Of a stretch of DNA of 64,000 nt, positions 23,712 through 59,377 are shown piece by piece. This stretch comes from a virus. Both the position numbers and the translations under genes were made by a program. The notes beneath the pieces were generated by a model. That model was not told the origin of the DNA and searched no databases. It was given only the letters and a program-made list of their open reading frames with translations. Position 1 is the first letter of the stretch. Every line of letters begins with the position of its first letter. The DNA lies in the IMG/VR virus record IMGVR_UViG_3300042453_003033, positions 4,469 through 68,468 of that record. The stretch is one strand, 5' to 3'.

Positions 23712-24649
23712 AAGATATATCAATGAGCGAAAAAGAACCAACCGAAGTAAAACTTATTACTCCACAAAGCACTGGAACATCGGCACCTAAGCTAACTAAG
23801 CCAATTATGCCAGTCCCAAATCTACCAAAGACTGAACCTGCTACGCAACAAACAACTTTTGACTACAAAAAGGTGCATGTGCATTTTGCAGTTCCTTGTT
23901 ATGGTGGAATGGTCAGTGAACCAACAATGACTAGCTTCTTACGTTTCACGTTGCTAGCTGCCAAAGTTGGACTAAATTGGAGTCTTGACACAATGGTAAA
24001 CGAAAGTTTAGTTACCCGTGCAAGAAACAATCTATGTGCAAAAATGATGACTAACGCCGCAGCAACACATTTTATGTTCATTGATGCCGATATTAGATTC
24101 GAACCCGAGTCTATATTTGGAATGATTGCTGCTGATAAAGACGTTATCGGCGGACTATATCCAAAGAAAAGTTTACCAATTGATTATGTAATTAATCTAA
24201 AGAATGGTGGAAGAATTGAAGGGCCAATCTTTCAAGTAGATACACAAGGCACTGGATTCTTACTTTTCAAGAAACACGTATATGAAAAGCTAATCGCAAC
24301 ACATCCAGAGTGCAAATACGTTGATGATATAGGTCTAGGCAAACAATACGAACCATTCATGTACAGTATATTTGATACCGTTATTGACGAAAAGGGTCAC
24401 TATCTTAGCGAAGACTGGACGTTCTGCCGTCGTTGGCAAGCAATTGGCGGTGACATCTGGGCAGACAGTAGAGTATTATTGAATCACATAGGCCACTATG
24501 AATTCAAGGGTGATCTATCCGCATTAGAGCGTAGAGGTCTTAAGCGTGTAGATGCTAATAGTCCCGAAGGGAAAGCGGCACTTGAAGCACAGAAAAAAGC
24601 AGCAGAGGCTGCTCTGGCACAAAAAAGCGCAGAACCAGCAGCAACTTAA
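23708..24649 (+). CDS. GT-A fold glycosyltransferase-like protein
   Basis: PCYGG, ESLVTRARN, FIDADI, GTGFLL and YLSEDWTFC motifs. Confidence 0.75.
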   Translation: MKDISMSEKEPTEVKLITPQSTGTSAPKLTKPIMPVPNLPKTEPATQQTTFDYKKVHVHFAVPCYGGMVSEPTMTSFLRFTLLAAKVGLNWSLDTMVNESLVTRARNNLCAKMMTNAAATHFMFIDADIRFEPESIFGMIAADKDVIGGLYPKKSLPIDYVINLKNGGRIEGPIFQVDTQGTGFLLFKKHVYEKLIATHPECKYVDDIGLGKQYEPFMYSIFDTVIDEKGHYLSEDWTFCRRWQAIGGDIWADSRVLLNHIGHYEFKGDLSALERRGLKRVDANSPEGKAALEAQKKAAEAALAQKSAEPAAT

Positions 24650-24670
24650 AAAGTAAATAAACTAAGTAAT

Positions 24671-24697
24671 ACGGGACCATTGGTCCCGTTTTTATTT
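24671..24697 (+). terminator. rho-independent terminator
   Basis: ACGGGACC-att-GGTCCCGT followed by TTTTATTT. Confidence 0.85.
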
Positions 24698-24733
24698 GTA
24701 CAGATAAATATAATATTAACAATTAATTTATCT

Positions 24734-25834
24734 ATGTATGCATATGAGCTTTATGAGCAAATTAAGCCACAAATAGTTGTGACTTACCCTGGTAGATTTC
24801 AACCATTTCATCAAGGCCATGCCGGTGTATTTGAAATACTGCAAAAAAGATTCGGCAGTGAAAATGTCTATATTTTAACTAGCAACGATACCAGCAGTGC
24901 AAAGAGTCCATTTAGCTTCAGTGACAAATATCAATTAATGACAGCGGCTGGTGTGCCTGGTGATAGAATTATTGAAACAAACAAGATGTATGAACTGCCA
25001 GCAGATTTTGATCGAAAAAATACTATCTTTATAACAGTTGTTGGTGGACCAGATGCCGATCGATTAAATCCTGATAGCTATACTAAACGCGATCAAAAAG
25101 ATGCAGATGGCAATGTAATAAAGCCTGCAGGCAGTCCTAGTTACTACCAAACTTTTAAAGAAAAAGAACAACCTGTTACGGCTGATAAACATGGTTATGT
25201 TATAGTAATTCCAGAATTACAAAAAAGAATTACGATTGGTGGTGAATCATACGATGTTAGTCATGGCACAGATGCAAGAAATTTGTGGAATAAAATTCGT
25301 AATAAACCAGAGTTAAGAAAAGAGTTTCTAACAAAGATGTATAAACGTCCTCATATGGAATTAGGTAACATTTTTGATAAGATTCAACAAACAACATCGG
25401 AAGATATTGCTGGCGTAAGTAATGATACTGCAAGTCCAATTAGCGGAAAAATTTACGAAGATATAGATACGATTGATAATCTAAAACAATCAATTAGAAA
25501 ATTCATACCTATCGCAATGCGTGTGTTAGATATTTCCAATTTGCCTAAAATAAAATTTAAGCTAAAAGTAGAAACTGGCGATGGTGTTCAATCTAGTTTT
25601 GGTCAGTTTATTCCAAGAAAGAATACCATATTAGTTGGTTGTTCAAACAGACATCCAGTAGATATACTTAGAACTTTAGCACATGAACTAGTTCACTATA
25701 AACAACACTTAGATAAAGAGCTAGACGCACAATCTGGCAATACTGGTAGTGACGAAGAAAACGATGCAAATGCTATGGCAGGAGTTATAATGCGATATTA
25801 TAATAAACAGAACCCAGCAGCAATTAACGATTAA
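24734..25834 (+). CDS. HxGH nucleotidyltransferase-like domain fused to HExxH metallopeptidase-like domain
   Basis: PGRFQPFHQGH at the N-terminus; RTLAHELVH...E..ANA.AG at the C-terminus. Confidence 0.75.
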   Translation: MYAYELYEQIKPQIVVTYPGRFQPFHQGHAGVFEILQKRFGSENVYILTSNDTSSAKSPFSFSDKYQLMTAAGVPGDRIIETNKMYELPADFDRKNTIFITVVGGPDADRLNPDSYTKRDQKDADGNVIKPAGSPSYYQTFKEKEQPVTADKHGYVIVIPELQKRITIGGESYDVSHGTDARNLWNKIRNKPELRKEFLTKMYKRPHMELGNIFDKIQQTTSEDIAGVSNDTASPISGKIYEDIDTIDNLKQSIRKFIPIAMRVLDISNLPKIKFKLKVETGDGVQSSFGQFIPRKNTILVGCSNRHPVDILRTLAHELVHYKQHLDKELDAQSGNTGSDEENDANAMAGVIMRYYNKQNPAAIND

Positions 25835-25863
25835 CATAAATACAATAAATAGGATTTACTGTA

Positions 25864-28800
25864 ATGAATAGCAAACAATTTTTAAAAGAGGGTTTTATCG
25901 AGGACGCTCACGAAGCACATATGGATCATGAGGTTCAAATGGCACGTGTAGATTGTTATTACGCCGCCGAACATGCAATAGTTTTGCATAAATTACTACG
26001 TAACATATCTGAAGAGCAAGGCCTAGAAGGTTGGGTTGCTTCAAAAATTACATTAGCAAATGACTATTTAAAATCAGTTAGAGAACATCTTGAATATCAA
26101 ATGATGAACACAGATGCTGATGAGGAAGATTTTCTTCCTCTAGCAGAAGGATTAACTTCCGTAAAAAAAAAGTTAAGTGAGGCAGCAGACAGCAAAGATA
26201 TTCAAGAATTTGAACGTGGCCCATGGTATATCATAGTCAAGGGTGAAGTAGTTCCTGAAGACGATGGCAGCCCAAGAAAATTTAATTGGTTAAATGCTGC
26301 TAAAGTGTTCTTTAGAAAAATGTTGGACGATGATCCAACCACAGCAGCACAATTAAAAAGTGAATATGACAACGCTACTGATAAAAAGTCAGTAGTTTAC
26401 TATAGTAAAAAACTCCCATCTGTATCATCAGATAATTCTTCTCTAGAAGAATCAGAAAAAAGACCTGGTCTGTGGGCTAATATAAGAGCAAAGCGTGAAC
26501 GTATAAAAGCCGGTAGTGGTGAACGTATGCGCAAACCAGGTAGTAAAGGTGCACCTACCAATAAAGACTTAAAGAGCATTCGTGCTAGTTCAGAGTCGAT
26601 GCATGAAGATGGATTAAACTTAGATCAACAAAAATCAGATTTTAAAAACCCACTAAATTTGAATCTTGGTTCTGTTCGAGGTTTGCCTATTAATGCTGGT
26701 ATTCAATCTACTCAAACTCCGCAATCATATTCAAATCGTCCTGGCGCTACTGGTATGGGATTGCAACCATCGTTAAGTATTGGTAATCCAGAGAGTGGTC
26801 CATTTGCTCAAATTAGTAAGCAAGGTGGAATGATAGGTTATAAAAAGACATTTGAAGGTTTGGGACCAGAACAAAAACGTGTTGGTCAACTTGGTCCAAC
26901 TGAAAATGTTAAGAAAAATAGTGGTGCCAGAGGTAAACTAGTTGGTGCCAATGAAAGTGTAGAGCAAGGTGTGGCGGAAGGCTCTGATAGCCTTAGAGGA
27001 ACCAACGAACCAAAGAAAAAAGATGCATGGGGTGAGGGTTATTGGGTAGGACATAGACGGGAAGATAGAGATTGCCCATATCCACCTGGTTCATTTGACG
27101 CAGAAATGTGGGAACTTGGTTATCACGAAGGTAACAAAGATAGAAAAAATGAAATGACTGGTCGTGTGGCGGAAGGCAAGTGGTCGCACAATGCTATCAC
27201 AGGACAGAAACTTGACCCAAGAACAGGTGAGATTCTACCAGTTAAAGAAAAGCCATTAACAATGAAGCAAATGTTTGCACCGAAGGCACAACCTAAACTA
27301 ACATTGGATGATGTGTGGCGTAAAGTAGAGAATGTAGTATCCCAAATCTATCCAGACGGTGATCCAAACGATTACATGGCTCCATGGTTAGAAAAGCATG
27401 GCATTAGAGATTTCAAGATCGGTGAAATATTAGACCGTGCCGCAAAGAAGAATGGCTACAAAGATATGTATGATTATTGGAATAGCATGGGCGAGCAAGG
27501 TGTGGCGGAAGGCTCGGAAGATTTAGTTCAGATTGAATACTGGAAACAAGATTCAATAGAAGCAGGTAGATGGGTTAAAACACAACCAATGCCAAGAGAA
27601 GTCGCAGAAGAACTACTACATTCACATCCAGGTGCCTTTTCAAGAGTTGAGATTGTTGATGTAAAGCAAGGTGTGGCGGAAGATATTGCTAGCACAAGAC
27701 GAGAAGTAAATCTCAAGAAGAAAATAGACAAAGGTATCGCTACTCCTGAACAGAAAAAAGAATATCAAGAACTAAAAGCAAAGAATATGGGACGAAAACT
27801 TGATAAAAAGCAAGGTGTGGCGGAAGGCTATAAAGAGCCTACTACTGCTGCCGGACATGCTAAAATGGCAGCTAAGATTAAGAAAATGTTAGACGACACA
27901 TTGGCAGACAGAGGCGACAGGCACGGTAATCCAGATCCACAACGACTAGCCAGTGCATATGAATATCACACGCAAAAAGCTAAAGAGAAATCGCAAGGTG
28001 TGGCGGAAGGCTCATTAAAAGAAGACGAATACGATAAGTATGAAACTGGTAAAATGGGCCAGGAAGAAGCAGTTACTGCTATGTTTACAAGACTTGCCCG
28101 TCAAGGCATTGATCCTATCGATATGATTGCAAACAGATTCGGTTGGAGCACATACGAACTTGACGATTTGGCACAGCAGCAAGGTTTTAAAAATACCGCA
28201 GAATGGTTGAATAGTTTTGATCAAGGTGTGGCGGAAGGCTGGAAAGAAAAAGCAGCAGGCGCCGCATTAGCAGGAGCAATGGCTGCTAGTCCAACACATG
28301 CAGGCTTTGGAGGTGAGTTAGCAGGTGCCGTAGCACAAGGTCTGGGCCGTGGTGTTGTATCTGGGGCAATTGGCCCAAAAGTGTTTGAGGAAAGAAATAA
28401 ACGAGATTTAGAGTTTGCCGAACAGATTCCAGACGAGGCCGATAAAGCAAGATATCTAAAAGCAGTTAAAAAAATCATGCACTCTAGAAATATGTCACTA
28501 GGTAGTAATGCTATGATGGGTGCAAATGCTGTGGATGAAATAGTCTTTAAGAAATTTAAGAAAAAATTGTCCGAAAAATACAATATACCATTGACGCAGG
28601 TAAAAGAACAAGGTGTGGCGGAAGGCTCAAATGATTTATATCAAAAAGCCATTCGCAAGTATGCCCAACAAGTAGCAAATGATTATCTAAACGGCGGAAA
28701 CGAATATCTTTATGGTGCCAACAAGTTTGATGCTGAAATGTTCGGTGTAAGCCAAGAAAAAGCAAATAAAGACTTTAAGACATGGTTTACTATGATTGTA

Positions 28801-29868
28801 CGTTCTCAAGCAGTAAGACCACGACGAGGTGTGGCGGAAGGCTCAGAGTCTAAAATTTCTAAGTGTGCTTCTTTAGCGGCAAAGTATTTTAATAGTGAAG
28901 GTCTTCAAAGACAATATGATATTGACGAGTATATTAAAAACAACGCAGGGAATGATCCAATTGTCAATAAATGTGCTTCTTTAGCGGCAAAGTATTTTAA
29001 TAGTGAAGGTCTTCAAAGACAATATGATATTGACGAGTATATTAAAGCAAATGCCAAGCAAGGTGTGGCGGAAGGCTATTCACTAAAGAAAACTAATGTT
29101 GAAAAAACATTTCATCCAGGTGACCCAGAGGATTTCGGCAGTGTTGATATGACACAAAAAGATACAGATTACGAAATTATTAATAATAAAACAGGTCAAG
29201 TAGTAGGTACTGCAAGTTGGACTACTAATGATTATTTTGGACCAGGGGCAATAAAGATTACCATGAAAAATGGTGCTACACGTTATCTTGATATTAAGAA
29301 TAGTGACAAGGGTAATCCACAAAGTGCCTTCAATCGTTTTGTAAAAGATCCAAGTACTTCTAAAAAATATAAAGAGCAAGGTGTGGCGGCAGGCTATGTC
29401 AACGATGCAAGTGAAGGTACAAAATTCATGATAGTTTATAACAAACATCATCCTAATCCAGCGGCTCATGGTAAGCCTGTTACCGGCGATGGAAAGCCAT
29501 GGATAATAACTGCCACTGATAGGAGAGCAGCATTAGACAAAGCGCATGAATATTTTGTACGATCACAAACTGTATCGTCATTTCGTGGGTATGTAGATGC
29601 AGTTCCTGTTGAGCAAGATGTGGCTGAAGGCTTCAGTGATGTTGTTAAGGGCATCAAGCGTAAAGTAGCAGGTAAGGACAATCCCAAAGATGTAGAACAT
29701 ACTTATGCTCGTATTGCCCGTAGAGATATAGAAGATGCTAACAAACTTAATAATCAAGCAGCATATGATGCTAGAGATAAATCAACAAAGCGTTGGAAAA
29801 AGGTCAATAAAGTTGTCAACAAGCAAGGTGCGGCGGGAAGCAAAGATAAATCTGAAAAGAAATCTTGA
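25864..29868 (+). CDS. 1334-aa mosaic polyprotein of cassettes separated by QGVAEG repeats
   Basis: Long ORF; 13 in-frame repeats; AGGA RBS and TAAATA upstream. Confidence 0.85.
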   Translation: MNSKQFLKEGFIEDAHEAHMDHEVQMARVDCYYAAEHAIVLHKLLRNISEEQGLEGWVASKITLANDYLKSVREHLEYQMMNTDADEEDFLPLAEGLTSVKKKLSEAADSKDIQEFERGPWYIIVKGEVVPEDDGSPRKFNWLNAAKVFFRKMLDDDPTTAAQLKSEYDNATDKKSVVYYSKKLPSVSSDNSSLEESEKRPGLWANIRAKRERIKAGSGERMRKPGSKGAPTNKDLKSIRASSESMHEDGLNLDQQKSDFKNPLNLNLGSVRGLPINAGIQSTQTPQSYSNRPGATGMGLQPSLSIGNPESGPFAQISKQGGMIGYKKTFEGLGPEQKRVGQLGPTENVKKNSGARGKLVGANESVEQGVAEGSDSLRGTNEPKKKDAWGEGYWVGHRREDRDCPYPPGSFDAEMWELGYHEGNKDRKNEMTGRVAEGKWSHNAITGQKLDPRTGEILPVKEKPLTMKQMFAPKAQPKLTLDDVWRKVENVVSQIYPDGDPNDYMAPWLEKHGIRDFKIGEILDRAAKKNGYKDMYDYWNSMGEQGVAEGSEDLVQIEYWKQDSIEAGRWVKTQPMPREVAEELLHSHPGAFSRVEIVDVKQGVAEDIASTRREVNLKKKIDKGIATPEQKKEYQELKAKNMGRKLDKKQGVAEGYKEPTTAAGHAKMAAKIKKMLDDTLADRGDRHGNPDPQRLASAYEYHTQKAKEKSQGVAEGSLKEDEYDKYETGKMGQEEAVTAMFTRLARQGIDPIDMIANRFGWSTYELDDLAQQQGFKNTAEWLNSFDQGVAEGWKEKAAGAALAGAMAASPTHAGFGGELAGAVAQGLGRGVVSGAIGPKVFEERNKRDLEFAEQIPDEADKARYLKAVKKIMHSRNMSLGSNAMMGANAVDEIVFKKFKKKLSEKYNIPLTQVKEQGVAEGSNDLYQKAIRKYAQQVANDYLNGGNEYLYGANKFDAEMFGVSQEKANKDFKTWFTMIVRSQAVRPRRGVAEGSESKISKCASLAAKYFNSEGLQRQYDIDEYIKNNAGNDPIVNKCASLAAKYFNSEGLQRQYDIDEYIKANAKQGVAEGYSLKKTNVEKTFHPGDPEDFGSVDMTQKDTDYEIINNKTGQVVGTASWTTNDYFGPGAIKITMKNGATRYLDIKNSDKGNPQSAFNRFVKDPSTSKKYKEQGVAAGYVNDASEGTKFMIVYNKHHPNPAAHGKPVTGDGKPWIITATDRRAALDKAHEYFVRSQTVSSFRGYVDAVPVEQDVAEGFSDVVKGIKRKVAGKDNPKDVEHTYARIARRDIEDANKLNNQAAYDARDKSTKRWKKVNKVVNKQGAAGSKDKSEKKS
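26965..29841 (+). repeat. interspersed 18-bp direct repeat CAAGGTGTGGCGGAAGGC, 13 copies
   Basis: Copies start at 26965, 27160, 27496, 27667, 27811, 27994, 28222, 28609, 28825, 29059, 29377, 29614 and 29824; a further degenerate copy is at 30107. Confidence 0.95.
28864..29046 (+). repeat. exact 75-bp direct duplication, period 108 bp
   Basis: CASLAAKYFNSEGLQRQYDIDEYIK is encoded twice by identical DNA (28864 and 28972). Confidence 0.9.
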
Positions 29869-29878
29869 AAGAACAATC

Positions 29879-30808
29879 ATGAGATTAAATGAGTTTGCAA
29901 GCGGAGGCGGCGATGATCGCAACGATTTACAACTTTACCTGAATGTTGCTTTAAAGTTAAAGATGAAGAAATTCAAGCCGGAAACGATGCGCGCCATAAT
30001 TACAAAGAAGATGTCAGAGTTAGTCAATGTCGTTGATGCTGATAAAGTAGATTGGGCATATCAAATGCTTCGTAAAGAACAGAGACTATCAAATATGTTA
30101 GATCAACACGGTGTGACAGAAGGTGAAATCGTAAAGGGTACGTTTGGACAAAAATTTAAACCCAATTTGGGCAGAACAGTACAAACATCTCCTTATGAAC
30201 ACAGACCAGATATAGATATACCACAGTATGACCCTGTAAGAAAAACCAACTGGATCAAAGGAATCAGTAAAGAAAACAATAAAGAACCTTATGATCATTT
30301 TGAACTAGATCAAACTAAACCAAATATTGCTCATATAATAGGTGTTACTAAAGATGGGCTGCAAGTAAAAATCAGCACATCGAATCTAAAACTAGCTGAA
30401 ATTCTTGTTGATCTTTACAATCGTGGTGGCTTTACTGATGCCGATATAGAAAAAATACCAATGAAATCTCCTGAAAGAGAAAAGCCAAAACTTAAATTAG
30501 TAAAATCAGACGACATTGAAGAAGATACTACATCACCATCAGAAAAAGTAGAGGCATATGGCTATGTATATAACAATCGTGATCAACGTATAGTGTGGCG
30601 TAAAATATTTTCAAGTGAAGATGAAGCAAATCGCTGGGCAGATCGTCGCAATGCCACAGTGTTAGGAATTAAACCGTTAAAACCATCAGATAAAATATCT
30701 GAAACCAGTGCAGGCAGTGTAGCAACTGTCGTGAATCCAAAAATGAAAGATCGTTCAAAAGTAGGCACACTATTTGGTGGAACATATAAACAGCGGAAAG
30801 ATAAATAA
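29879..30808 (+). CDS. mosaic hypothetical protein, possibly head-packaged
   Basis: Probable start MRLNEF; contains a degenerate HGVTEG repeat. Confidence 0.7.
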   Translation: MRLNEFASGGGDDRNDLQLYLNVALKLKMKKFKPETMRAIITKKMSELVNVVDADKVDWAYQMLRKEQRLSNMLDQHGVTEGEIVKGTFGQKFKPNLGRTVQTSPYEHRPDIDIPQYDPVRKTNWIKGISKENNKEPYDHFELDQTKPNIAHIIGVTKDGLQVKISTSNLKLAEILVDLYNRGGFTDADIEKIPMKSPEREKPKLKLVKSDDIEEDTTSPSEKVEAYGYVYNNRDQRIVWRKIFSSEDEANRWADRRNATVLGIKPLKPSDKISETSAGSVATVVNPKMKDRSKVGTLFGGTYKQRKDK

Positions 30809-30812
30809 ATTT

Positions 30813-32507
30813 ATGGACGATATAAAAAATACCTTATCTAAATTAGATGCTTTGTCACATAATAATACATCGCAAAGTAATAAACATTTAACAGAAGGCA
30901 ATACTGGTGCAATAGTCAAAGATATTGCTGGTAAAGCAGTTCGAAGAGCAGTTCCGGTAGTTGGAACTGCGTTAAGCTGGGACGAAGCTTATGATCGTTG
31001 GAAACAAGGTGATAGAACAGGTGCTGTTATATCTGGATTGGCCGGTGGTGCTTATTTAATTCCAGGTGTAGGACTAGCAGCGGGCGCTGCATTAGATGCT
31101 GCAAACGTTGGTAGAGACATAAAAGCAGGTCAATATGACGATTTACCACAGCAAGCAAAAGATTGGTATGACGAGAAAAGTAAATCAGTTAAAGATTTAG
31201 GTCAAAGTATTCAAAATGCTGGACAAAAATTAAAAAGTGTTGATGGCTATGTAAGTGGCGGCGTTAAGGAAAACACAATGAAAAATATTGAAAGAAAATC
31301 CAATACAAAAAACAAAGTTAATCAACGTTCTTTGACCGAAGAAGAACAATTAAATGAAATTTTAGGTTGGTTGAGAAATTTAGTTAGGGGTCGCAAGAAA
31401 GCTACACCTACTCCTAGACCTACTCCTAGACCTGCACCAGGAACTCGTCCATCGAAATCTGATGATGTGGTTGATATCCAAGCCAGAGATGTATCAGATC
31501 GTCAAGTACCAGCTATAAGACAATCAACCGCTGTAGGTAGTCCTACAAGTATTAGACCTGCCGGTGGTGGCACAACTGGTGCTAGACCTGTCAGTGGTGG
31601 TGGAGGCGGTGTTACTCCAGGTAGAGCAGCAGCCAGCGTGGGGGGTGCCGCCGCGGCAGGAGGTGGTTTAGGATATGCTCTTAGTAGCGATGACACTGAT
31701 AGCAAAAAAACAAATAACAGGACTGATACCTTACAAAATCCTCCAATAAATTATAGTGCTGCCGCTACTGATATGCAAGGCATATCACCTTCAGCAGATG
31801 CTTTGCCTGGTGGTAGACCAGCAGCAGATGCGGCAGTAACTGCCACTCAGCCCGCTGCCACTAGCTCAACACCAGCGGCCACATCCTCAGCTACTACTGC
31901 CGCATCTGCCGCTCCAGTAGCGACAGCACCTGCCGCAGTAGAACCACCAAGAGGTTCTGGTATACGTCCGACATCTACTTTTCAGATACCTAATCTACCT
32001 CAAGTACCTCAAGGTTCAGCACTATCTCCAGACTTTGAATCTAGAACTGGTCCATTTGATTTTACAAATGCTCAGAAACAATGGTTACGTGGTGCAAACC
32101 GCCAAGATCCTTATATCATAGCGCGCATGAGAAGAGAAGTTGGAGGACCTTTACCACCAGTTGACTATTTTAAAAATCCAGAAGATCAAGCAATAGCTCG
32201 TCAGTTAAATGTCGGTAGAGACAATCTTAACAGAGTTCGCGGTGCAGTAGGCAGTAAACCACTTGGAACTGATGGGTATTTTCCTGATCAAAATCAACCA
32301 CCTCCAGCTAAAAAACCTCGATGGCAGCCGACGGAACCACTTCCAACTAATTTAGAAAGTGTTTATCCAAACAAAAGACAGTTGAATTTCAGAGAAAATC
32401 GCCATAGTGCTGTAAATCGTCTAACAAGAAAATTTGAAAACTATATAGAAAACAAATTTAATATAGTTGAAAATAATTACGTTCCTAAAAAAAAAAATTT
32501 AAGGTAG
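30813..32507 (+). CDS. low-complexity mosaic protein (Ala/Pro/Gly-rich)
   Basis: Start moved to ATG 30813; ends just after an A11 tract. Confidence 0.75.
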   Translation: MDDIKNTLSKLDALSHNNTSQSNKHLTEGNTGAIVKDIAGKAVRRAVPVVGTALSWDEAYDRWKQGDRTGAVISGLAGGAYLIPGVGLAAGAALDAANVGRDIKAGQYDDLPQQAKDWYDEKSKSVKDLGQSIQNAGQKLKSVDGYVSGGVKENTMKNIERKSNTKNKVNQRSLTEEEQLNEILGWLRNLVRGRKKATPTPRPTPRPAPGTRPSKSDDVVDIQARDVSDRQVPAIRQSTAVGSPTSIRPAGGGTTGARPVSGGGGGVTPGRAAASVGGAAAAGGGLGYALSSDDTDSKKTNNRTDTLQNPPINYSAAATDMQGISPSADALPGGRPAADAAVTATQPAATSSTPAATSSATTAASAAPVATAPAAVEPPRGSGIRPTSTFQIPNLPQVPQGSALSPDFESRTGPFDFTNAQKQWLRGANRQDPYIIARMRREVGGPLPPVDYFKNPEDQAIARQLNVGRDNLNRVRGAVGSKPLGTDGYFPDQNQPPPAKKPRWQPTEPLPTNLESVYPNKRQLNFRENRHSAVNRLTRKFENYIENKFNIVENNYVPKKKNLR

Positions 32508-32859: not shown

Positions 32860-35800
32860 ATGAATTTGTACGATTTTTTTTCTAACAATAAAAAATTAAA
32901 CATTAAAGAAAATATTCCTACCGCAAATGAAGTAGAAAAACAAGTCGTTAATGAAAATTTACATAAATGGTTTAAAGAAAAATGGGTTCGTTTTGGCCCA
33001 GATGGAAAAATACGCGGTGATTGTGCTCGAGGTGATGATAGCGAAGGCAAACCAAAATGTTTACCACGTGCTAAAGCACATAGCCTAGGGAAAAAAGGTC
33101 GTGCCAGTGCTGCTGCCAGAAAACGTCGTGAGGACCCAAATCCAGAACGCAGTGGATCAGCAATAAATGTTGCAACAAAAAGTAAAAGAAAAATAGACGA
33201 ACAGACTGGTAAAGCAGCATCTATCAAATCAGAAAGCATAAAATCACTAGCTGAACAAATTGGACCTAGAGGCGAGACGGTGCGATTACCACCAACTCCG
33301 GCAGATGCTAATTTTGAACGATATCTTAGCACATTACCAAAAGCATCTGATCCTGCGTCGGCACAATCTCAACCTCAACGTAGAGGTACAATGCCAAGGG
33401 TTGGTACAGATTTTTACTATGTGCCTGGTGCTGCACCGAACGCGAGAAGTCAAGCAGCGGCAGTTGCGTCACCTGTCTCATCACCTCAAATAGTCGGCAG
33501 CACTGGCGCAGGCGCTAGAGCAGCAAGGGCTGCGGATTCGGCAGCGGCGGCCAGAGTAACACCACCTATCAATCAACCTCCACGCAGAGTCTCACCACCT
33601 AAAGTTGATACGGATTCTTATTCTGTGCAAGATGGTAATATCAAACCAGATGCAAGACATCAAGCAAGAATAGCATCTCAGGCTATCCAGCGAGACACAG
33701 AGGCACAAAAACAAGCTGCCAGAGAAAAAGAATATGCCGCCTCAGTAGATAGTGCAGATGCTGAATTAGGCACTGCTATAAAAGCAAATGCACAAGCTGC
33801 CAGAGAAAAAGAATATGCTACTAGTTCAGATCAAGAAGATACTGATTTAGCTACTGCAATGAATAAAATGGCTGCCGATCTTGCAAAAACCGCGTCAACA
33901 GATGATCAATTAGCCGCTGCTGCGAATGTAGCAACAGGTGGTTATTCGGGTGGCAGAGGTCAACCTACTACAGTATCAACTCCTACTTCTTATACATTAC
34001 GTCGCGGTGACACATTAAGTCAACTAGCATCAAAATTTGACACAACAACACAAGAACTGATGCGATTAAATCCAGACATAAAAGATCCAAATAAAATATA
34101 TGCAGGGATGACATTAAATGTGTCGAAACCAACAGATGCTGCTACGGGACAAACAATAGCTCCAGATCAAAGTAGTGCGGAAACACAAAGACTTGATAGA
34201 CAGCCAGTAAAAATTCGAACTGCTACGGGACAAACAATAGCTCCAGATCAAAGTAGTGCGGAAACACAAAGACTTGATAGACAGCCAGTAAAAATTCGAA
34301 CTGCTACTGGACAAACAATAGCTCCAGATCAAAGTAGTGCGGAAACACAAAGACTTGATAGACAGCCAGTAAAAATTATGCCTGGCACAGTAGGAACTTC
34401 TTCTGGCCAACTTACAACGTTGGATGGTACACCATGGTTCACTGGATATCCACCAGAACAAGAAATACCTGTTAGCCCACCATCCATACGTCCCGGAGAA
34501 AAAAGAGCGGATCGTGCTGGAGGATCAGCAGACTTAGCGGGTGATATTGGACGCGGAGAATTTTCTGCTGCTGGTAAACCATCCGTCAGACCAGATAGAG
34601 TAGTCCCACCTAGCAGTGCTGGTTCAGCATCATCAACTCAAACAGGATCAGGATTAAGACTGCCGTCTCAATCAGGATCAGGATTAAGACTACCACCAGC
34701 TCAAACAGGTGCAGCAAAACCACCCGCTGCTGAACCAACGTCACCGCCTAAACCAGGAGCAGCAAAACCACCCGCTGCTGAACCAACGACACCAGTTAAA
34801 CCAGGAGCAACAAAACCACCCGCTGCTGAACCAACGACACCAGTTAAACCAGGAACAACAAAACCACCCGCTGCTGAACCAACGACACCAGTTAAACCAG
34901 GAGCAACAACAGATGATCAAGCTAAATTAAGACAAAATTTGACACCCGGGCAACTAAAATATGCCGGTGATGCTGATTTAAGTAGACCAGCTACAGGCAC
35001 AAATCGTGTTATCGAGAAAATGCCATTACCAGATTCAGATAGAATTGTAAAAGCATTCTCGACTGCGGAAGCTTCAAAAAATCCAAATTTGGCATATGGT
35101 GACGCCATAGATAAAAATGGTAACATTGTTAGTACTGTAAGAGCCAATAGAGGAATTAAAATTGGTCGAAGATTACTAACTGCTGAACAGTGGAGTGAAA
35201 AAGAGTTAGGTCAAGCTAAAAAGCTATCTAATATGACAATATCTGAAGTTCAGCAATTTCAAAAATACAGAGAAGCCAATCATAAGAATGCTAATGCTGT
35301 AGGTGCTTATCAATTTGTTGGTGACACTCTTGATAATCTTGTAAAGAAACTAGGTCTTGATCCAAAAACAACAATATTTAATCAAAAAACTCAAAATTTA
35401 TTGCTTAGCGAACTTACAAAAGATAATGCTAACACTTTAAAAAGAAATGGTATTTTACCAGATATAGTAAATATTTACATGGCACATGCTGTTGGAGGTC
35501 GTGGTGCTGTAGGTATATATGACGATTTACGCAAAGATTCAAATAAAACGGTTATTGATTCAATAATGGACACGTGGGAACAAAATAATCCAAGAGATGC
35601 TGGCAATCCAAGAAAAGTGGCAATGCAGAGAAAAATTTTATTAGCTGGTAATCCTCACATGACCGATATGAGAATTGGTGAGTACTATGACTATCTTAAA
35701 AACGCCACTGAAGGTAAAACAAGAAATTCAGCATATACACAAAGATCAAACGCCGCACAGCAAAGTCTCGGATTACGTGACGAATCAGGTCGACCAAATG

Positions 35801-36921
35801 AACAAGAGATTAGGAAATATCAAAAAAGTAATGGCCTAAGACAGACTGGCGAAATTAATTGGCAAACAATTCATCATGTTAATAAAAATGTAGCAAGACA
35901 ACCCGTAAGAGAAAATTTTGAATTTAGTCCTGAACAAGAAAAATGGCTAGGGAACGCAAATCGTCAAGATCCATACATAATAGCCAGAATGCCTGGACCT
36001 AAGCCACCAGCCGAATATTTTACAAACCCAGAAGATCAACGTGTTGCACAACAAATAGTTAGATCACAAGATTTAGCAAACAAATGGCAAGAATTTAGAC
36101 AAGGTGGTTCACTGGCAAGCAAAGCAGTTAGTAGAATACCAGGTGTAAGTCAAGCAGCAAACGTTGTAGATATCGGAGCAAATCTAGCTAAAGGTGATTT
36201 GCCTGCCGCTGGTAGACAAGCGTTAGGCATGATACCTGCCGCTAGACCAATTAATTTAGCATTACAAGCAGGTGATGTCGCAAGTAATCTTCAACAAGGT
36301 AATTTAGCTGCCGGAGCAAAAGGTGCATTAGGTATTGCAGCAGGTACCGGAAGTGAAACAGCTGGTCGAGCACTTAAAGGATGGAATTTATTTAATAGAC
36401 TACAAAAAACTACACAGTCATTAGCTGACAAGCAAAATCAACCAACAATGGAAAACACTTGCCCACATTGCGGTGGTTTATCAGTAGATGATGAAATGTT
36501 AGCTGAGAAGAAAGATGCTTGCTATCACAAGGTTAAAAGTAGATATAAAGTATGGCCCAGCGCATATGCCAGTGGTGCTTTAGTAAAATGTCGTAAAAAA
36601 GGCGCTAAAAACTGGGGTAAATCAAAAGCCAATGAAGATAGCAATCTATACTTCAATATATCAGGCACCGACAAGAAAACTTTAATATCCGAGTTTAAAC
36701 TAAATCGCAATAATAAAGGATGGTATTTAAAAGAAGATTCACCATCATCTGTTAAACTAGATGCAATACGCGCATTTGGTATGCCTTTAAGCGAAGAAGA
36801 ATTAAACCCAACGGCATATAGCGGCACTGCTGCAACAATAGGTGTAGATAATCCTAGAAGTCCAGTTGGTTCGGTTCCAAAAAGCCAAAGAATAAATAGT
36901 AAACAAAAGGGTAAAAAATAA
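32860..36921 (+). CDS. 1353-aa mosaic protein with LysM, lysozyme-like and peptidoglycan-binding-like segments
   Basis: LysM YTLRRGDTLSQLA...LNPDIKDPNKIYAG (~33991-34122); AEAS...AVGAYQF..TL and YMAHAVG; IRKYQKSNGLRQTGEI. Confidence 0.8.
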   Translation: MNLYDFFSNNKKLNIKENIPTANEVEKQVVNENLHKWFKEKWVRFGPDGKIRGDCARGDDSEGKPKCLPRAKAHSLGKKGRASAAARKRREDPNPERSGSAINVATKSKRKIDEQTGKAASIKSESIKSLAEQIGPRGETVRLPPTPADANFERYLSTLPKASDPASAQSQPQRRGTMPRVGTDFYYVPGAAPNARSQAAAVASPVSSPQIVGSTGAGARAARAADSAAAARVTPPINQPPRRVSPPKVDTDSYSVQDGNIKPDARHQARIASQAIQRDTEAQKQAAREKEYAASVDSADAELGTAIKANAQAAREKEYATSSDQEDTDLATAMNKMAADLAKTASTDDQLAAAANVATGGYSGGRGQPTTVSTPTSYTLRRGDTLSQLASKFDTTTQELMRLNPDIKDPNKIYAGMTLNVSKPTDAATGQTIAPDQSSAETQRLDRQPVKIRTATGQTIAPDQSSAETQRLDRQPVKIRTATGQTIAPDQSSAETQRLDRQPVKIMPGTVGTSSGQLTTLDGTPWFTGYPPEQEIPVSPPSIRPGEKRADRAGGSADLAGDIGRGEFSAAGKPSVRPDRVVPPSSAGSASSTQTGSGLRLPSQSGSGLRLPPAQTGAAKPPAAEPTSPPKPGAAKPPAAEPTTPVKPGATKPPAAEPTTPVKPGTTKPPAAEPTTPVKPGATTDDQAKLRQNLTPGQLKYAGDADLSRPATGTNRVIEKMPLPDSDRIVKAFSTAEASKNPNLAYGDAIDKNGNIVSTVRANRGIKIGRRLLTAEQWSEKELGQAKKLSNMTISEVQQFQKYREANHKNANAVGAYQFVGDTLDNLVKKLGLDPKTTIFNQKTQNLLLSELTKDNANTLKRNGILPDIVNIYMAHAVGGRGAVGIYDDLRKDSNKTVIDSIMDTWEQNNPRDAGNPRKVAMQRKILLAGNPHMTDMRIGEYYDYLKNATEGKTRNSAYTQRSNAAQQSLGLRDESGRPNEQEIRKYQKSNGLRQTGEINWQTIHHVNKNVARQPVRENFEFSPEQEKWLGNANRQDPYIIARMPGPKPPAEYFTNPEDQRVAQQIVRSQDLANKWQEFRQGGSLASKAVSRIPGVSQAANVVDIGANLAKGDLPAAGRQALGMIPAARPINLALQAGDVASNLQQGNLAAGAKGALGIAAGTGSETAGRALKGWNLFNRLQKTTQSLADKQNQPTMENTCPHCGGLSVDDEMLAEKKDACYHKVKSRYKVWPSAYASGALVKCRKKGAKNWGKSKANEDSNLYFNISGTDKKTLISEFKLNRNNKGWYLKEDSPSSVKLDAIRAFGMPLSEEELNPTAYSGTAATIGVDNPRSPVGSVPKSQRINSKQKGKK
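34141..34377 (+). repeat. tandem repeat, 81 bp x ~3
   Basis: ATGQTIAPDQSSAETQRLDRQPVKIRT; near-identical DNA. Confidence 0.95.
34708..34908 (+). repeat. tandem repeat, 48 bp x ~4
   Basis: GA(A/T)KPPAAEPTTPVKP units. Confidence 0.95.
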
Positions 36922-41672: not shown

Positions 41673-41933
41673 ATGGACTCTACCAATACTGATATCGAAG
41701 ATATCATTGAATGGCCGCCAGAATTTTATGATAAACACTGGCAAAACATGCCATCGTACAATCAACCAGATAATGGTGCATATAGACAGTTAATCATTAA
41801 TTTCGAAGATGAAGCGGCAGTAAAAGCTTTTTCAGAATTAGTTGGTCAAACTCTAACAAAGAAAACTAAAAGCATCTGGTTTCCAAAACGTGAACAAAAC
41901 AACGTAAGTGATTTGTTCTGGATTGAAGAATGA
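41673..41933 (+). CDS. small acidic protein coupled to the glycosyltransferase
   Basis: WQNMPSYNQ...Q.LTKKTKSIWFP; overlaps the next gene. Confidence 0.65.
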   Translation: MDSTNTDIEDIIEWPPEFYDKHWQNMPSYNQPDNGAYRQLIINFEDEAAVKAFSELVGQTLTKKTKSIWFPKREQNNVSDLFWIEE

Positions 41934-42826
41934 GTAATCCACAATTTCCAATCTACATAGTTAGTAAAGGTCGTGCAGACAGTAGACTAACTAGTAAGGC
42001 TCTTACTCTAATGAAAGTGCCGCACTACATGGTAGTAGAGTCACAAGAATATGACATTTATGTTGAAGCTTGTAAGGGATCTACTGCTACTGTAATCATA
42101 CTTGATCTAGACTATAAAAAGCAGTATGACTGTTTTGACAATCTAGGACTAACAAAATCTACTGGTCCTGGACCCGCAAGAAACTTTGCATGGGATCATA
42201 GTATTTCCAATGGGTTTACGTGGCATTGGGTGATGGATGATAACATTGCAGAATTTCTTCGTTTAACTGATAATAAAAAAATCAGATTTGGCGATGGTAC
42301 CTGTTTTAGAATCATGGAAGATTTTGTTCTACGATACAAGAATATAGGTATGGCAGGTCCTCAATACAGAGCATTTGCTCCACAAAACTCAAAAATACCT
42401 CCATTTGTAGCTAATACACGCATCTATAGTTGTAATCTTATTCGAAATGATGTGCCATTCAGATGGCGTGGCAGATACAATGAAGACACTGACTTAAGTT
42501 TACGTATGCTTAAAGCTGGATGGGCTACAGTGCAATTCAATGCATTTTTACAAGATAAACTACGTACACAAGTACTAGGAGGTGGTAATACCGCAGAATT
42601 CTATGCACGTGAAGGTACTGCTGCTAAAAGTCAAATGCAAGTAGATATGCATCCTGATGTTAGTAGATTGACATGGAAATTCGGCAGAATACATCACGAA
42701 GTAAATTACAATCCATTTAAAGACATACCATTAATATTCAAAGATGACTATGTATCTACGAAGTCAGTAAATGAATACGGTCTTAAATTGAAATCAGGCT
42801 GGCAAGAAATAAAAGGTCAGCAATGA
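41930..42826 (+). CDS. TET-associated/GREB1-like glycosyltransferase (putative DNA base modification)
   Basis: PIYIVSKGR, GPARN, HWVMDDNI, RIYSCNLI, RYNEDTDLSLR and GGNT motifs. Confidence 0.75.
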   Translation: MSNPQFPIYIVSKGRADSRLTSKALTLMKVPHYMVVESQEYDIYVEACKGSTATVIILDLDYKKQYDCFDNLGLTKSTGPGPARNFAWDHSISNGFTWHWVMDDNIAEFLRLTDNKKIRFGDGTCFRIMEDFVLRYKNIGMAGPQYRAFAPQNSKIPPFVANTRIYSCNLIRNDVPFRWRGRYNEDTDLSLRMLKAGWATVQFNAFLQDKLRTQVLGGGNTAEFYAREGTAAKSQMQVDMHPDVSRLTWKFGRIHHEVNYNPFKDIPLIFKDDYVSTKSVNEYGLKLKSGWQEIKGQQ

Positions 42827-57053: not shown

Positions 57054-58115
57054 TCATGTCGCTTTAATCCTTATGTAATCCTTATAGTATTCTTTATAGT
57101 CTTGCTCTGATTTAATTTTTACGCCCGTTGTTAAGTTTTTGATAATTTCTGAATTAGCTTCTAACATTGGAGCTTTAGTAATCATCACATCAGTAACACA
57201 AAAACATTTTCTCTGAACGCAGATTTCACCCGCTGTTGGCAATTCATTTTTTTCATGATCGTCTATGTGAAACAGATGCCCTCCCTGGCCGCAATTACCC
57301 TTTTTAACATAACCGTCAAAACCTATATACAAACTTTCTAGTCCTATATTACACGCCCAACCTCTAAAATCATTTTGACCACTAGTAATTAAATAATTAC
57401 CATTGGCGTTTTTATCTACTGAACCATCACTATAATGAAAACTAGAACCTATTTTTTCTTGCCTAAAAAGTGGCGCCTTTGTACTGTCTATTGCTATTTT
57501 TCGGTTGACGCCCATTTGATTTTTAAACAACCACTCAATATTTTCTGGAGTATAATCATCGCCTATATGTCTATTCGCTATTTCTGGTAGTATTCTAACT
57601 GGCTCTGTTCGTATTTCTGAAATTTTAGAACACTCTTCATAAAAATGTAATGATTTATCCCAGTATCTACTATCCATCATAACCCTGATTACCACGTGAG
57701 TATGTTTAGCGGATTCTAATGCCTTCTCGATTAGTTGAGGATCATGACTACCCGGGTGATAACTAAAACAAATATAACTTAGTTTAGGTGCCACTGACTT
57801 CCAGTAATCTATAGTTCTGACACCGTTAGTAGTAATACCTACAGTATGACCACTGTCATACAGCATATTAACTATTTCAGGAAAAAATGGACTTACGGTA
57901 GGTTCTCCACCACTAATACTACAGTGTATTTTTTCATAGTGCCCACTTAATCGTTGAATGAAATCTTTCGCACGTTCGATATTATAATTATGATTAGTTC
58001 CGTTATGTAGTATAGGCGGACAATAATCACAATGATTTGTGCAAATATTATTGATAACCCACGTTAGTCGTAGAATGTTATCATGTTGTCTGATCCTTAT
58101 TACACGTTTATTCAT
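57054..58115 (-). CDS. radical SAM protein
   Basis: CTNHCDYC, SGGEPT, TTNG; C-terminal Cys cluster. Confidence 0.9.
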   Translation of the reverse strand: MNKRVIRIRQHDNILRLTWVINNICTNHCDYCPPILHNGTNHNYNIERAKDFIQRLSGHYEKIHCSISGGEPTVSPFFPEIVNMLYDSGHTVGITTNGVRTIDYWKSVAPKLSYICFSYHPGSHDPQLIEKALESAKHTHVVIRVMMDSRYWDKSLHFYEECSKISEIRTEPVRILPEIANRHIGDDYTPENIEWLFKNQMGVNRKIAIDSTKAPLFRQEKIGSSFHYSDGSVDKNANGNYLITSGQNDFRGWACNIGLESLYIGFDGYVKKGNCGQGGHLFHIDDHEKNELPTAGEICVQRKCFCVTDVMITKAPMLEANSEIIKNLTTGVKIKSEQDYKEYYKDYIRIKAT

Positions 58116-59377
58116 GTGTGTTTCTTTAATAGTTCATAATATTCTGAATATAGTTTACTGAATTTATATGATCTGATACTATCTAACCCATCAATATAAT
58201 CAAGTAAGGCACTATATTTATTGCTATCATCGTCAGCTAACATATATTCAAGTTGACTGGATATCCTAGTTCGCCACTTTTCATTAGATTGTAATTCTGG
58301 GAAAGAATTCCATCGCTCAACTATTGCCTGTTTTACCGGTGTCGGTAATACTCTAGTAGACATATACTGCGGCCAATGTGTTGTTCCAACAGAAAAAAGA
58401 TCACCATTATTTCTACAGATTTTTTTCCAATTACGATTTAATATCTCACTAGCGAATTCAGGCAAAGTATAAATATTCATAGCATGAACGGTTGTTAAGA
58501 TGTTGACTACAATAGTAGACGATGTTTCGTCAAGCCTGTCTAGATTTTTAACAATATCATTCCAGTCAGAAGGATATCTGATATAGTCATTTCGCTGACC
58601 CCAATCGTCTATACTCAGTAATAACTCCACTTGTTTGAATTGACTCCATAATTCAATAAACTTCTCACTCAACACAGTAGCATTAGTATGATATCTCAAT
58701 TCAATATTTTTTGAGTGACCTGTTTCTACAAGTTTAGTAATAAATCGTTCGTGATTTTTAATCAACAAAGGTTCACCACCACCAAAGATGATGTGCCTTA
58801 TATCACCCATAAACTCGTCAAGAGCCTGTTGTGTTTCTAAACGTTCGAACCAATCAAAACAATCAGTGTTAGTTATACTGATTGATTTGAATTTCCAATC
58901 ATTTTTTGCCTCTGGCGAGGTAAGAATGTCTGCTAAGCGTCGGCTATCTGATAGCCACTTACTACTATCTCTGGGTCTACACATTACACATTGTAGATTA
59001 CACGTATTACCTATTCTCAGATCAAGAGTAATAGGATTATAATTTACACTACCGTCAGGATTTGTGCTAGCTATTAAATTTTCTAGATAGTCAGTACCTA
59101 ACTTTTTTTGCCACATGAAATTTTCAATCATTCTGTGACTTTTCATGCCAGCGTCTTCTTCTTTCCAACAACTTCTACATTGAGGTAGTTTTTGTCCAGC
59201 AAGAAATTCAAGTCTAGCTTTTTTAAATGGCTCACTATTCCATACTTTTTCTGGTGTTAAACTGTTTAAATTAATGCCTTGTTCTGGCATAGCTATACAA
59301 CACAACGGAACTTTACCGTCATTCCAACTAGCAAGATGTATCCATGGCAAAATACAAAAATTTTGTTTTTCAATCAT
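58112..59377 (-). CDS. radical SAM protein with N-terminal SPASM/twitch-like Cys cluster
   Basis: CILPW...CC...C..C; CNLQCVMC; GGEP. Confidence 0.9.
   Translation of the reverse strand: MIEKQNFCILPWIHLASWNDGKVPLCCIAMPEQGINLNSLTPEKVWNSEPFKKARLEFLAGQKLPQCRSCWKEEDAGMKSHRMIENFMWQKKLGTDYLENLIASTNPDGSVNYNPITLDLRIGNTCNLQCVMCRPRDSSKWLSDSRRLADILTSPEAKNDWKFKSISITNTDCFDWFERLETQQALDEFMGDIRHIIFGGGEPLLIKNHERFITKLVETGHSKNIELRYHTNATVLSEKFIELWSQFKQVELLLSIDDWGQRNDYIRYPSDWNDIVKNLDRLDETSSTIVVNILTTVHAMNIYTLPEFASEILNRNWKKICRNNGDLFSVGTTHWPQYMSTRVLPTPVKQAIVERWNSFPELQSNEKWRTRISSQLEYMLADDDSNKYSALLDYIDGLDSIRSYKFSKLYSEYYELLKKHT

Follow-up and report, generated by a model that had tools for sequence, protein, structure and literature searches.

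Introduction

T-even phages carry a highly diverse set of internal proteins that, as described in PMC3012670, have only a capsid-targeting sequence in common. In T4 this sequence is MKTYQEFIAE, and the accounts in PMC8442874 and PMC7411985 describe both its removal by gp21 and the fate of the proteins that carry it, which are packaged and then ejected with the DNA; the cleavage motif of gp21 is given as L/I-X-E in PMC9026906. In the PeSL promoter/stem-loop cassettes, short conserved motifs flank variable open reading frames (ORFs), and recombination deletes, inserts, or swaps the modules (PMC2839356; PMC4122927); mini-circles were shown experimentally, as reported in PMC2839356. The gp38 adhesins of T2/T6-type phages, as portrayed in PMC3157838, alternate in-frame conserved motifs with interchangeable variable segments. 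Here we describe an array gene of a lake virus in which a word of 18 nucleotides (nt), translated as QGVAEG, joins unrelated protein cassettes in frame. The stretch of DNA that was analysed, which we call the window, is 64,000 nt long and comprises bases 4469-68468 of the 68,468-bp IMG/VR record IMGVR_UViG_3300042453_003033, rated 18% complete by CheckV.

We show that this word is conserved as DNA, beyond the peptide that it encodes, across at least 120 viral contigs, and that cassettes are gained, lost, replaced, and re-ordered precisely at the word, both among distant relatives and between near-identical strains. Our preferred reading, which we hold with moderate confidence, is that the word serves as an in-frame crossover for general recombination and doubles as a gp21-type cleavage site in a hypervariable polyprotein.

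Results

One DNA word joins unrelated cassettes in frame

A scan of the window (G+C content 35.7%) for CAAGGTGTGGCGGAAGGC, the DNA behind QGVAEG, with up to three mismatches yields 12 matches, all on the plus strand and eight of them exact (Table 1). The chance expectation is 0.02 matches, and 12 were reached in none of 100 shuffles. A 13th copy, at 27160 (GRVAEG), differs in its first six bases and retains GTGGCGGAAGGC. Each of the 13 copies is in frame with the array ORF; they follow one another at spacings of 195, 336, 171, 144, 183, 228, 387, 216, 234, 318, 237, and 210 nt, and nothing is conserved in their 30-nt flanks. The 12 cassettes, 48-129 amino acids (aa) in length, are fused in frame and have no similarity to one another (blastp, E<=1e-5). 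An earlier reading of this DNA, made from its letters without database searches (the sequence-only reading), had described 13 in-frame 18-bp repeats at these spacings with unrelated segments between them, and the scan and the blastp comparison confirm that description. It had also noted that the codons GTG GCG GAA are the same in the first ten copies; indeed, the core GTGGCGGAAG is invariant in copies 1-10, with no copy on the minus strand. Besides these copies and a 14th in the next ORF, no site in the window comes within four mismatches on either strand, and the whole record holds no further copy outside the array gene. The array of the window is the largest among the 120 loci that we fetched for comparison and the window itself.

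The sequence-only reading saw the copies decay toward the 3' end and likened this polarity to CRISPR (clustered regularly interspaced short palindromic repeats) or integron arrays. In this gene the last three copies have in fact decayed. Across arrays with at least four sites (146 sites), however, mismatch count is unrelated to array position (Spearman rho 0.03, p 0.74), so the decay belongs to this gene and the likeness to CRISPR or integron polarity falls away.

The array ORF stops nine codons after Junction 13. The C-terminal module of the ORF that follows lies within the array ORF of the nearest orthologue, L045, and the following ORF is probably a former continuation of the array. No insertion or deletion is reported at the site of Junction 13 in four lake runs (see below), and for this reason the split between the two ORFs looks real in this lineage.

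The word is conserved beyond the peptide

When the 18-mer is sought in related phages, it is found in at least 120 IMG/VR contigs, some of them 262-374 kb long, and always in frame inside long ORFs. The 120 fetched loci together with the window gave 124 motif-bearing ORFs with a median of 543 codons; these hold 325 in-frame sites with up to three mismatches, compared to zero out-of-frame sites. The sequence on either side of the word is unrelated from locus to locus.

For codon statistics, we used the 111 peptide-defined GVAEG sites in these ORFs that are obtained when one exact copy per fetched locus is removed to account for ascertainment. The codons at the 111 sites are GGT in 106, GTG in 103, GCG in 97, GAA in 106, and GGC in 81. 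Against a background in the same 124 ORFs where GTG makes up 20.7% of Val codons and GCG 7.6% of Ala codons, these counts bear out the earlier suggestion that the repeat is conserved at the DNA level. The canonical 15-mer is present at 66 of the 111 sites; its probability from codon usage is 0.0018. As an internal control, the leaders of these phages are conserved as peptides, yet their synonymous positions are free to vary.

Junctions that have departed from the canonical word show where the constraint lies. In 164 variant junctions, the changes are concentrated at positions 1, 17, and 18, and over core positions 2-16 the third codon positions are almost as well kept as the others; the conserved core is about 15-16 nt long (AAGGTGTGGCGGAAG). 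A scan that allowed any base at three synonymous positions returned 120 stretches, 38 of which are the already-known exact loci. In the 82 new loci (86 matches), the canonical codon combination is the commonest (9), followed by a one-step variant (8), and the rest reach at most 7 each; many of the non-canonical combinations sit in short open frames and look like chance.

No second junction word common to many loci was found. Other k-mers occur in at most 18 loci, and we suspect that they come from conserved genes. Three proteins (P0004, P0010, and P0016) use other junction dialects throughout (QDMAEG, QGMAEG) together with a few copies of QGVAEG, and such uniformity inside single proteins suggests that junctions evolve in concert within lineages.

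Homology between loci ends at the word

We compared 304 sites with 60-nt flanks, taking pairs of sites from different loci and counting flanks as homologous at 70% identity or more. Homology is confined to the upstream side in 54 pairs and to the downstream side in 52. Both sides are homologous in 18 pairs, which are essentially 100% identical and represent the same phage sampled twice. One base past the word, per-base identity is down to about 0.3 from values of about 0.7-1.0. The same picture emerges from whole cassettes: blastp finds 57 homologous pairs of internal cassettes, and their neighbours differ upstream in 39 of 55 cases and downstream in 38 of 50. Every cassette of the window that has a homologue has one in a different locus. 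The 201 internal cassettes fall into 147 families, 112 of which are singletons.

The nearest orthologue, L045, has an N-terminal part that is 74% identical and the same downstream genes, with different cassettes in between. Identical cassette order with synonymous drift in the repeat, the pattern that the sequence-only reading associated with an ordinary linker-repeat protein, is not what we see. Its claim that the repeat is a recombination joint and the locus a shufflable library is upheld, given that homology stops at the motif edges and the neighbours differ.

The exchange of one module, just before Junction 1 (26854-26964), is recent. This module is 98.5% identical in L218 (9810-9940) and 96.1% identical in L219 (4046-4173), with flanks in both loci that are unrelated to those in the window. 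On the left it is bounded by a GAA GGT codon pair and on the right by the word. The module contains GLGPEQKRVGQLGPTE, and more distant versions of it lie near the C-terminus of P0004 and P0016.

The break in homology also bears on the question of whether the nucleotide constraint serves RNA or translation, for example through a pause at domain borders or an RNA-binding protein, with shuffling as a by-product. The word is always on the sense strand in one frame, and it holds two purine-rich, Shine-Dalgarno-like stretches, both of which would suit such a role. Only two of its six codons are rare, however; no antisense partner with at least 13 of 14 matches is present in five genomes, the unrelated flanks exclude a conserved fold, and homology that breaks exactly at the word would be left unexplained. 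We therefore consider this explanation very unlikely.

Near-identical lake strains differ in array content

We compared Logan contigs of four lake runs (X4, X6, X9, and X13) with positions 24000-32000 of the window; no single-letter insertions or deletions are reported in these four runs. The pieces from X4, X6, and X9 are colinear with the window. Two records from X13 are rearranged. The first is a contig of 4905 nt at a depth of 22.5 that has 25 differences from the window over 24000-26981 (2982 nt; about 99% identity). At Junction 1 it continues with 182 further letters and then reaches the word region again, an in-frame insertion of 201 nt. After Junction 3, 218 letters replace 1088 nt (five cassettes), and the contig returns to the window sequence 6 nt ahead of Junction 8, for a net loss of 870 nt (3 x 290). 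The second record is a contig of 3510 nt at a depth of 20.7, in which the end of Junction 10 leads to Junction 5, two cassettes follow, and Junction 7 leads to Junction 13. It is also without 205 nt, a deletion whose right edge is Junction 14. Array content thus differs between strains, with the breakpoints at junctions, as expected of the shuffling that the sequence-only reading proposed. Joints in the four runs with sides of 20-25 nt are mostly other genes that share the word, and these were left out of the count.

Our data consist of metagenomic assemblies only, which raises the question of an artefact of repeat assembly or, more simply, of an ordinary linker-repeat protein. Because the word is shorter than the k-mer of the Logan assembler, which we take to be 31, it cannot by itself cause contigs to be joined. 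The stretch is present in 20 runs from as many studies, of which 19 are lake-water metagenomes and one is labelled only 'metagenome'; three of the runs may be where this DNA comes from. The word recurs in the contigs counted above (at least 120), and neither the codon statistics nor the exact breakpoints are expected of a plain linker. There is next to no chance that either explanation is correct.

The junction peptide resembles a prohead-protease site

The junction tripeptide V-A-E, with M, I, or L as variants of its first residue, fits the hydrophobic-X-Glu motif of gp21-type proteases as a sequence match only. Across the 164 variant junctions, the GVAE codons have 54 synonymous changes compared to 58 non-synonymous changes; about 28% would be expected to be synonymous without peptide constraint. 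Changes hit the first and the second base of the Glu codon only two times each, Val gives way to Met, Ile, or Leu, and the residue after Glu varies (G/A/D/E/S/V). Even where junctions have diverged from the canonical word by 5-8 nt, the pattern persists, as I-T-E^A, M-A-E^A, L-S-E^G, or I-A-E^G; the caret marks the predicted cut. We predict that [V/I/L/M]-A-E^G is probably a cleavage site of a T4 gp21-type prohead protease.

A protease of this type is encoded by several of the relatives. Peptidase_S77, the gp21-type family, is matched in five of ten related records (G001, G003, G004, G006, and G009), and G006 is the contig of the nearest orthologue, L045. The S77 gene adjoins a scaffold-like gene and, in G001, G003, and G004, also a gene for a gp23-type capsid protein; these are the three of the five records searched in which a gp23-type capsid protein was found. 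In the five other related records there is no match to S77; four of these are 35-76% complete, and G002 is rated 99%. G002 is the record of L042. It is 342,865 bp long, carries the polymerase of the clade, and has no match to the capsid protein of a relative.

Cassettes are also found behind leaders that resemble the T4 capsid-targeting sequence. A search with the cassette at 29074-29376 against 1.84 billion representative proteins returned 36 related clusters, in which the relatives sit at any position within proteins of 107-1601 aa. Three of the relatives start directly after a leader (MRAKEFITE^G, MRFKEFISE^G, and MKLTEILSE^G). The fetched loci contain 32 leader-led ORFs; in 7 of the 32, the sequence after the Glu aligns with a post-junction cassette of another locus, with the alignment starting within 6 aa on both sides. 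Because cassettes align in register behind both, the junction Glu occupies the position of the Glu that is cut in T4-type leaders. This interchange of leader and junction is the strongest indirect argument for cleavage, short of demonstration. A strict leader pattern is present in 7 of 77 array ORFs compared to 15 of 707 other ORFs, and a loose pattern in 18 of 77 compared to 80 of 707 (p 0.0055). In L070 and L088, the leader runs straight into the junction peptide (MRATEFIIEGVAEG and MRINEILVEQGVAEG), as if a cassette had been lost between the two.

The sequence-only reading had proposed VAE^G as a prohead-protease site, with both T4 gp21 and the phiKZ protease in mind. Indirect evidence favours the T4 side of this proposal: S77 in five of ten records, the retention of hydrophobic-X-Glu, and the leader register. 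The phiKZ-type motif S/A-X-E fits less well than the T4-type L/I-X-E.

It is possible to explain the exchanges without any cleavage, if the 18-mer is a DNA recombination adaptor and QGVAEG a tolerated flexible linker within an uncut multidomain (polyvalent) protein. Nucleotide conservation is roughly even over the core codon positions, the residue after Glu and even the Glu itself can be lost, and some polyvalent proteins are packaged unprocessed according to PMC5512222, all of which this explanation would accommodate. It would not account for junctions that have decayed as DNA and yet keep hydrophobic-X-Glu, for the enrichment of synonymous changes over the neutral share, or for a junction Glu in register with the Glu that ends the leaders of free-standing homologues. 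We judge it unlikely.

The carriers are T4-like jumbo phages from lakes

Five large related records (G001-G005) hold 1-7 copies of the word each, on a single strand per record. Their family-B DNA polymerases are 57-60% identical to that of the window, and a homologue of this polymerase lies nearby in 50 of the 120 fetched loci. Among the genes of the window, PHROG labels identify a clamp loader, a polymerase, and a gp47-like exonuclease, all of them replication genes of T4 type. To judge from the shared polymerase and the T4-type replication genes, the carriers are one deep clade of uncultured T4-like jumbo phages from lakes.

A blastn search of 50,697 phage records with the array ORF gave no match, and tblastn matched residues 200-257 only; thus no cultured relative with the array is found there. 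As a further control, we searched 596 Gb of prokaryote genomes, which hold 56 stretches with the word; 55 of these are single copies in DNA of 40-74% GC. The sole match of array type, L267, has 39% G+C and four in-frame sites, and is a contig from a lake metagenome-assembled genome binned as an uncultured Bacteroidetes. Mis-binning of phage DNA could explain this contig, which hints only faintly, if at all, at the host. Betaproteobacterial bins were dropped as a pointer to the host, those matches being single copies in GC-rich DNA. Full-text literature searches, within the texts that they covered, gave no description of the word or of comparable arrays, and QGVAEG matched only unrelated fungal proteomics.

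Cassette contents and neighbouring genes

Most cassettes resemble no known domain. Pfam searches over 145 cassette-family representatives gave two GNAT acetyltransferase domains, one Pol-beta nucleotidyltransferase (NTase), one ParB N-terminal domain (ParB_N), one ribosome modulation factor (RMF), and some domains of unknown function; most gave none. In the array ORF of the window, the only domain match is the sub-threshold one to RMF (Table 1). A word-based search for free-standing relatives of this RMF-like cassette, 33-105 aa long, returned none, which is no evidence of their absence.

The recurrent cassette was modelled over the 101 residues before the next junction (29074-29376). The model has a mean predicted local distance difference test (pLDDT) score of 91.9, with a five-stranded sheet and a helix covering nearly all residues. 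Foldseek against the PDB gave a best E of 0.09, to a uracil-DNA glycosylase inhibitor with a template modelling (TM) score of 0.35-0.40, which is unconvincing; the best VIA-align Z of 6.1 is within noise, the best E in BFVD is 0.012, and none of these searches gave a convincing relative. A single-sequence AlphaFold model of residues 318-716 is poor (pLDDT 52) and uninformative on the flexibility of the linkers. The cassette at 28840-29073 contains a tandem duplication of about 33 aa (KCASLAAKYFNSEGLQRQYDIDEYIK twice), which is also present in the homologous cassette of L086. The small module in the N-terminal region, phrog_16028, has counterparts at 53-87% identity among hypothetical proteins in 66 phage records, mostly podovirus-type phages of Synechococcus, Prochlorococcus, and Pelagibacter.

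Upstream of the array, homologues of the gene at 24680-25834 occur in 21 of the 120 loci, and the four longest among the matches listed cover its N-terminal part only. From its sequence, the product might be the processing protease instead of a gp21-type enzyme; its link to the system is only putative. Downstream of the array are two large, low-complexity, multi-module proteins without the junction word (30774-32507 and 32860-36921), which have in common the module ANRQDPYIIARM...YF.NPEDQ. The 1353-aa protein of the two has a LysM domain, transglycosylase-like PHROG matches, a 27-aa repeat in three copies, and proline-rich repeats. Three adjacent radical-SAM-like genes (PHROG labels) lie on the minus strand at 57054-60660, near a thymidylate-synthase-like gene and a glucosyltransferase-like gene (41930-42826); this combination suggests modified DNA bases.

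Table 1 Features of the array gene and its surroundings (window coordinates).
Feature	Position	Strand	Description
Upstream gene	24680..25834	+	Cytidylyltransferase-like N-terminal domain; weak HExxH metallopeptidase-like C-terminal part; context only
Array gene	25864..29868	+	ORF for a 1334-aa polyprotein: N-terminal region (residues 1-367), then 12 cassettes
N-terminal leader	25864..25893	+	MNSKQFLKEG; resembles the T4 capsid-targeting sequence, resemblance only
Small module	26461..26574	+	Residues 200-237, 38 aa, phrog_16028, in the N-terminal region
Exchanged module	26854..26964	+	111 nt, 37 codons, just before Junction 1
Junction 1	26965..26982	+	Exact 18-mer (QGVAEG); extra 201-nt cassette here in run X13
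RMF-like cassette	26980..27174	+	65 aa; Pfam PF04957, E 5.1e-6, 26.9 bits against a cut-off of 27.9
Junction 2	27160..27177	+	GRVAEG; last 12 nt canonical
Junction 3	27496..27513	+	Exact; breakpoint in X13
Junction 4	27667..27684	+	QGVAED, 2 mismatches
Junction 5	27811..27828	+	Exact; breakpoint in X13 record 2
Junction 6	27994..28011	+	Exact
Junction 7	28222..28239	+	Exact; breakpoint in X13 record 2
Junction 8	28609..28626	+	Exact; breakpoint in X13 record 1
Junction 9	28825..28842	+	RGVAEG, 1 mismatch
Junction 10	29059..29076	+	Exact; breakpoint in X13 record 2
Recurrent cassette	29074..29391	+	106 aa; predicted compact beta-sheet-plus-helix domain; also at any position in other arrays and behind leaders
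Junction 11	29377..29394	+	QGVAAG, 1 mismatch, Glu lost
Junction 12	29614..29631	+	QDVAEG, 2 mismatches
Junction 13	29824..29841	+	Decayed; G run one base longer than canonical, frame shifted
Next ORF	29879..30808	+	+1 frame relative to the array ORF
Junction 14	30107..30124	+	HGVTEG, 4 mismatches, in the frame of the next ORF

Discussion

The mechanism that we propose, whose recombination route, cleavage, packaging, and ejection we infer, would work as follows. The word would be a universal in-frame crossover point for the general recombination of the phage itself, acting either through short homology between two full words or, when only one partner has a full word, through GAAGG microhomology, as with leader-led genes, in which the leader ends in ...GAA GG. 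Cassettes flanked by intact words would spread, so that the word stays uniform through turnover; junctions that no longer move would drift as DNA and keep hydrophobic-X-Glu. The N-terminal leader would carry the polyprotein into the prohead, where a gp21-type protease would cut it into modules that leave with the DNA, like the internal proteins of T4. The array is an in-frame form of T4-type modular shuffling, applied to polyproteins of what are probably internal proteins.

Several observations weigh against this proposal. With regard to recombination, the strain evidence consists of Logan contigs of one run and not of raw reads. In an unfiltered blastn survey, tracts of high identity end at the word or a variant in 17 of 53 cases on the left and in 41 of 63 on the right, and the remaining ends lie elsewhere, several at gene starts; because array genes and other genes are pooled in it, the survey is noisy. 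In some exchanges GAAGG is all that is shared on one side, and 18 nt is short for efficient homologous recombination, so that a dedicated enzyme, or pure selection on random breaks, may be involved instead. With regard to processing, G002 (99% complete, four exact motifs) and G005 have no match to S77 or gp23, and the record of the window itself (18% complete) has no match to the major capsid protein of a relative, the prohead-protease family not having been searched there. Some junctions are without Glu (QGVAAG at 29377), and because the Glu has been lost at these, cleavage cannot be essential at every joint. Just 7 of the 77 array ORFs fit the strict pattern of a capsid-targeting-type leader, and all runs found to hold the stretch are DNA contigs.

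If an enzyme is involved, a sequence-specific nuclease or an unrecognised recombinase would recognise the 15-16-nt core and act at GAAGG, in the manner of an integron but in frame. A protease site alone would call for a much shorter and less uniform core, several exchanges have just GAAGG in common on one side, as secondary sites would, and all copies have one orientation. We nevertheless think this quite unlikely. In line with the sequence-only reading, which saw no recombinase in the window, a scan of 30 ORFs of the window gave no recombinase of the tyrosine or serine type; PF00589 and PF00239 gave no match in any of five related genomes (three at least 97% complete), with positive controls in 14 of 14 and 12 of 14. 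Neither a palindrome nor an attC-like structure is present in the word, and T4-type phages are described as shuffling modules at short conserved motifs by general recombination (PMC2839356). A further-reaching form, in which the core is the site where a dedicated enzyme cuts and rejoins at GAAGG, driving a clade-wide in-frame exchange of injected effector modules, and in which the same site doubles as the protease site that would later free each module, a counterpart of the integron at the level of proteins, strikes us as doubtful.

Returning to the reading that we prefer, if the junction is also a protease site, the arrays would be a rapidly reshuffled arsenal of DNA-delivered proteins; they would then offer a window on the conflict between phages and hosts in lakes and a source of small host-acting proteins. 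The word is a test case for how short a homology can drive productive recombination, and for a sequence that is maintained by the mobility it confers and not by its product. The signal is unusually clean, widespread, and directly testable.

Integron arrays and the R64 shufflon likewise consist of exchangeable cassettes bounded by a repeated site, and in the R64 shufflon a 19-bp repeat lies in frame in the coding region. Integrons rely on an IntI-type tyrosine recombinase, which is not found here (PF00589 in none of five related genomes). Their attC sites are imperfect palindromes around free-standing gene cassettes, whereas the 18-mer has no self-complementarity and is confined to one strand, and the cassettes here do not begin with a start codon and are translated together into a single protein. 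The shufflon has inverted repeats and a recombinase; here there are direct repeats only, and no Rci-type, tyrosine, or serine recombinase was found. CRISPR repeats are non-coding and of fixed length, their spacers are of near-constant length, and the arrays have a polarity from the leader end, in contrast to the translated repeats here, with spacings of 144-387 nt and no general positional decay. With no recombinase found in these genomes, no palindrome, direct copies, and no general decay, the array does not belong with integrons, shufflons, or CRISPR arrays, nor with PeSLs.

By analogy, its working mode resembles PeSL-mediated shuffling and the motif/segment design of gp38. PeSLs combine an early promoter and a stem-loop in the intergenic space between whole genes, whereas the word is coding, in frame, 18 nt long, and within one gene, with unrelated flanks. 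The glycine-rich motifs of gp38, as described, form the structural core of one domain in fixed order; here the domains are autonomous and free in order and number.

Polyvalent proteins, as defined by Iyer et al. 2017 (PMC5512222), contain 2-15 disparate domains and are predicted to travel with the DNA, some of them being released by peptidases. The array of 12 cassettes likewise holds many disparate domains in one phage polypeptide, and the GNAT, NTase, and ParB-like domains of the cassette pool belong to classes that PMC5512222 lists, although most cassettes have no known domain. A uniform junction word, conservation at the DNA level, and shuffling bounded by a motif did not come up in a term-based search of PMC5512222.

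The inner-body and ejection proteins of phiKZ, 201phi2-1, and SPN3US come close in another respect: PMC9026906 and PMC7411985 describe how giant phages package many proteins that gp21-related proteases cleave behind a Glu in short motifs, in many cases at more than one site. The motifs there are S/A-X-E or A-X-E, the substrates are separate genes with long propeptides, and these accounts describe no repeated DNA word.

The internal proteins of T4 (IPI-III and Alt), whose loci are polymorphic among T-even phages, are, like the cassettes, diverse and fast-changing small proteins (PMC7411985, PMC3012670, PMC8442874). Their leader, in these descriptions, ends in hydrophobic-X-Glu, and homologous cassettes here occur behind such leaders. 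They differ in that each is a separate gene whose product is cut once, whereas the arrays here put up to 13 modules into one ORF, with a DNA-conserved word between them. T4-type swapping at motifs is seen here in a more extreme and cleaner form, with one 18-nt word unchanged to the letter in at least 120 contigs and at least 147 families of cassettes.

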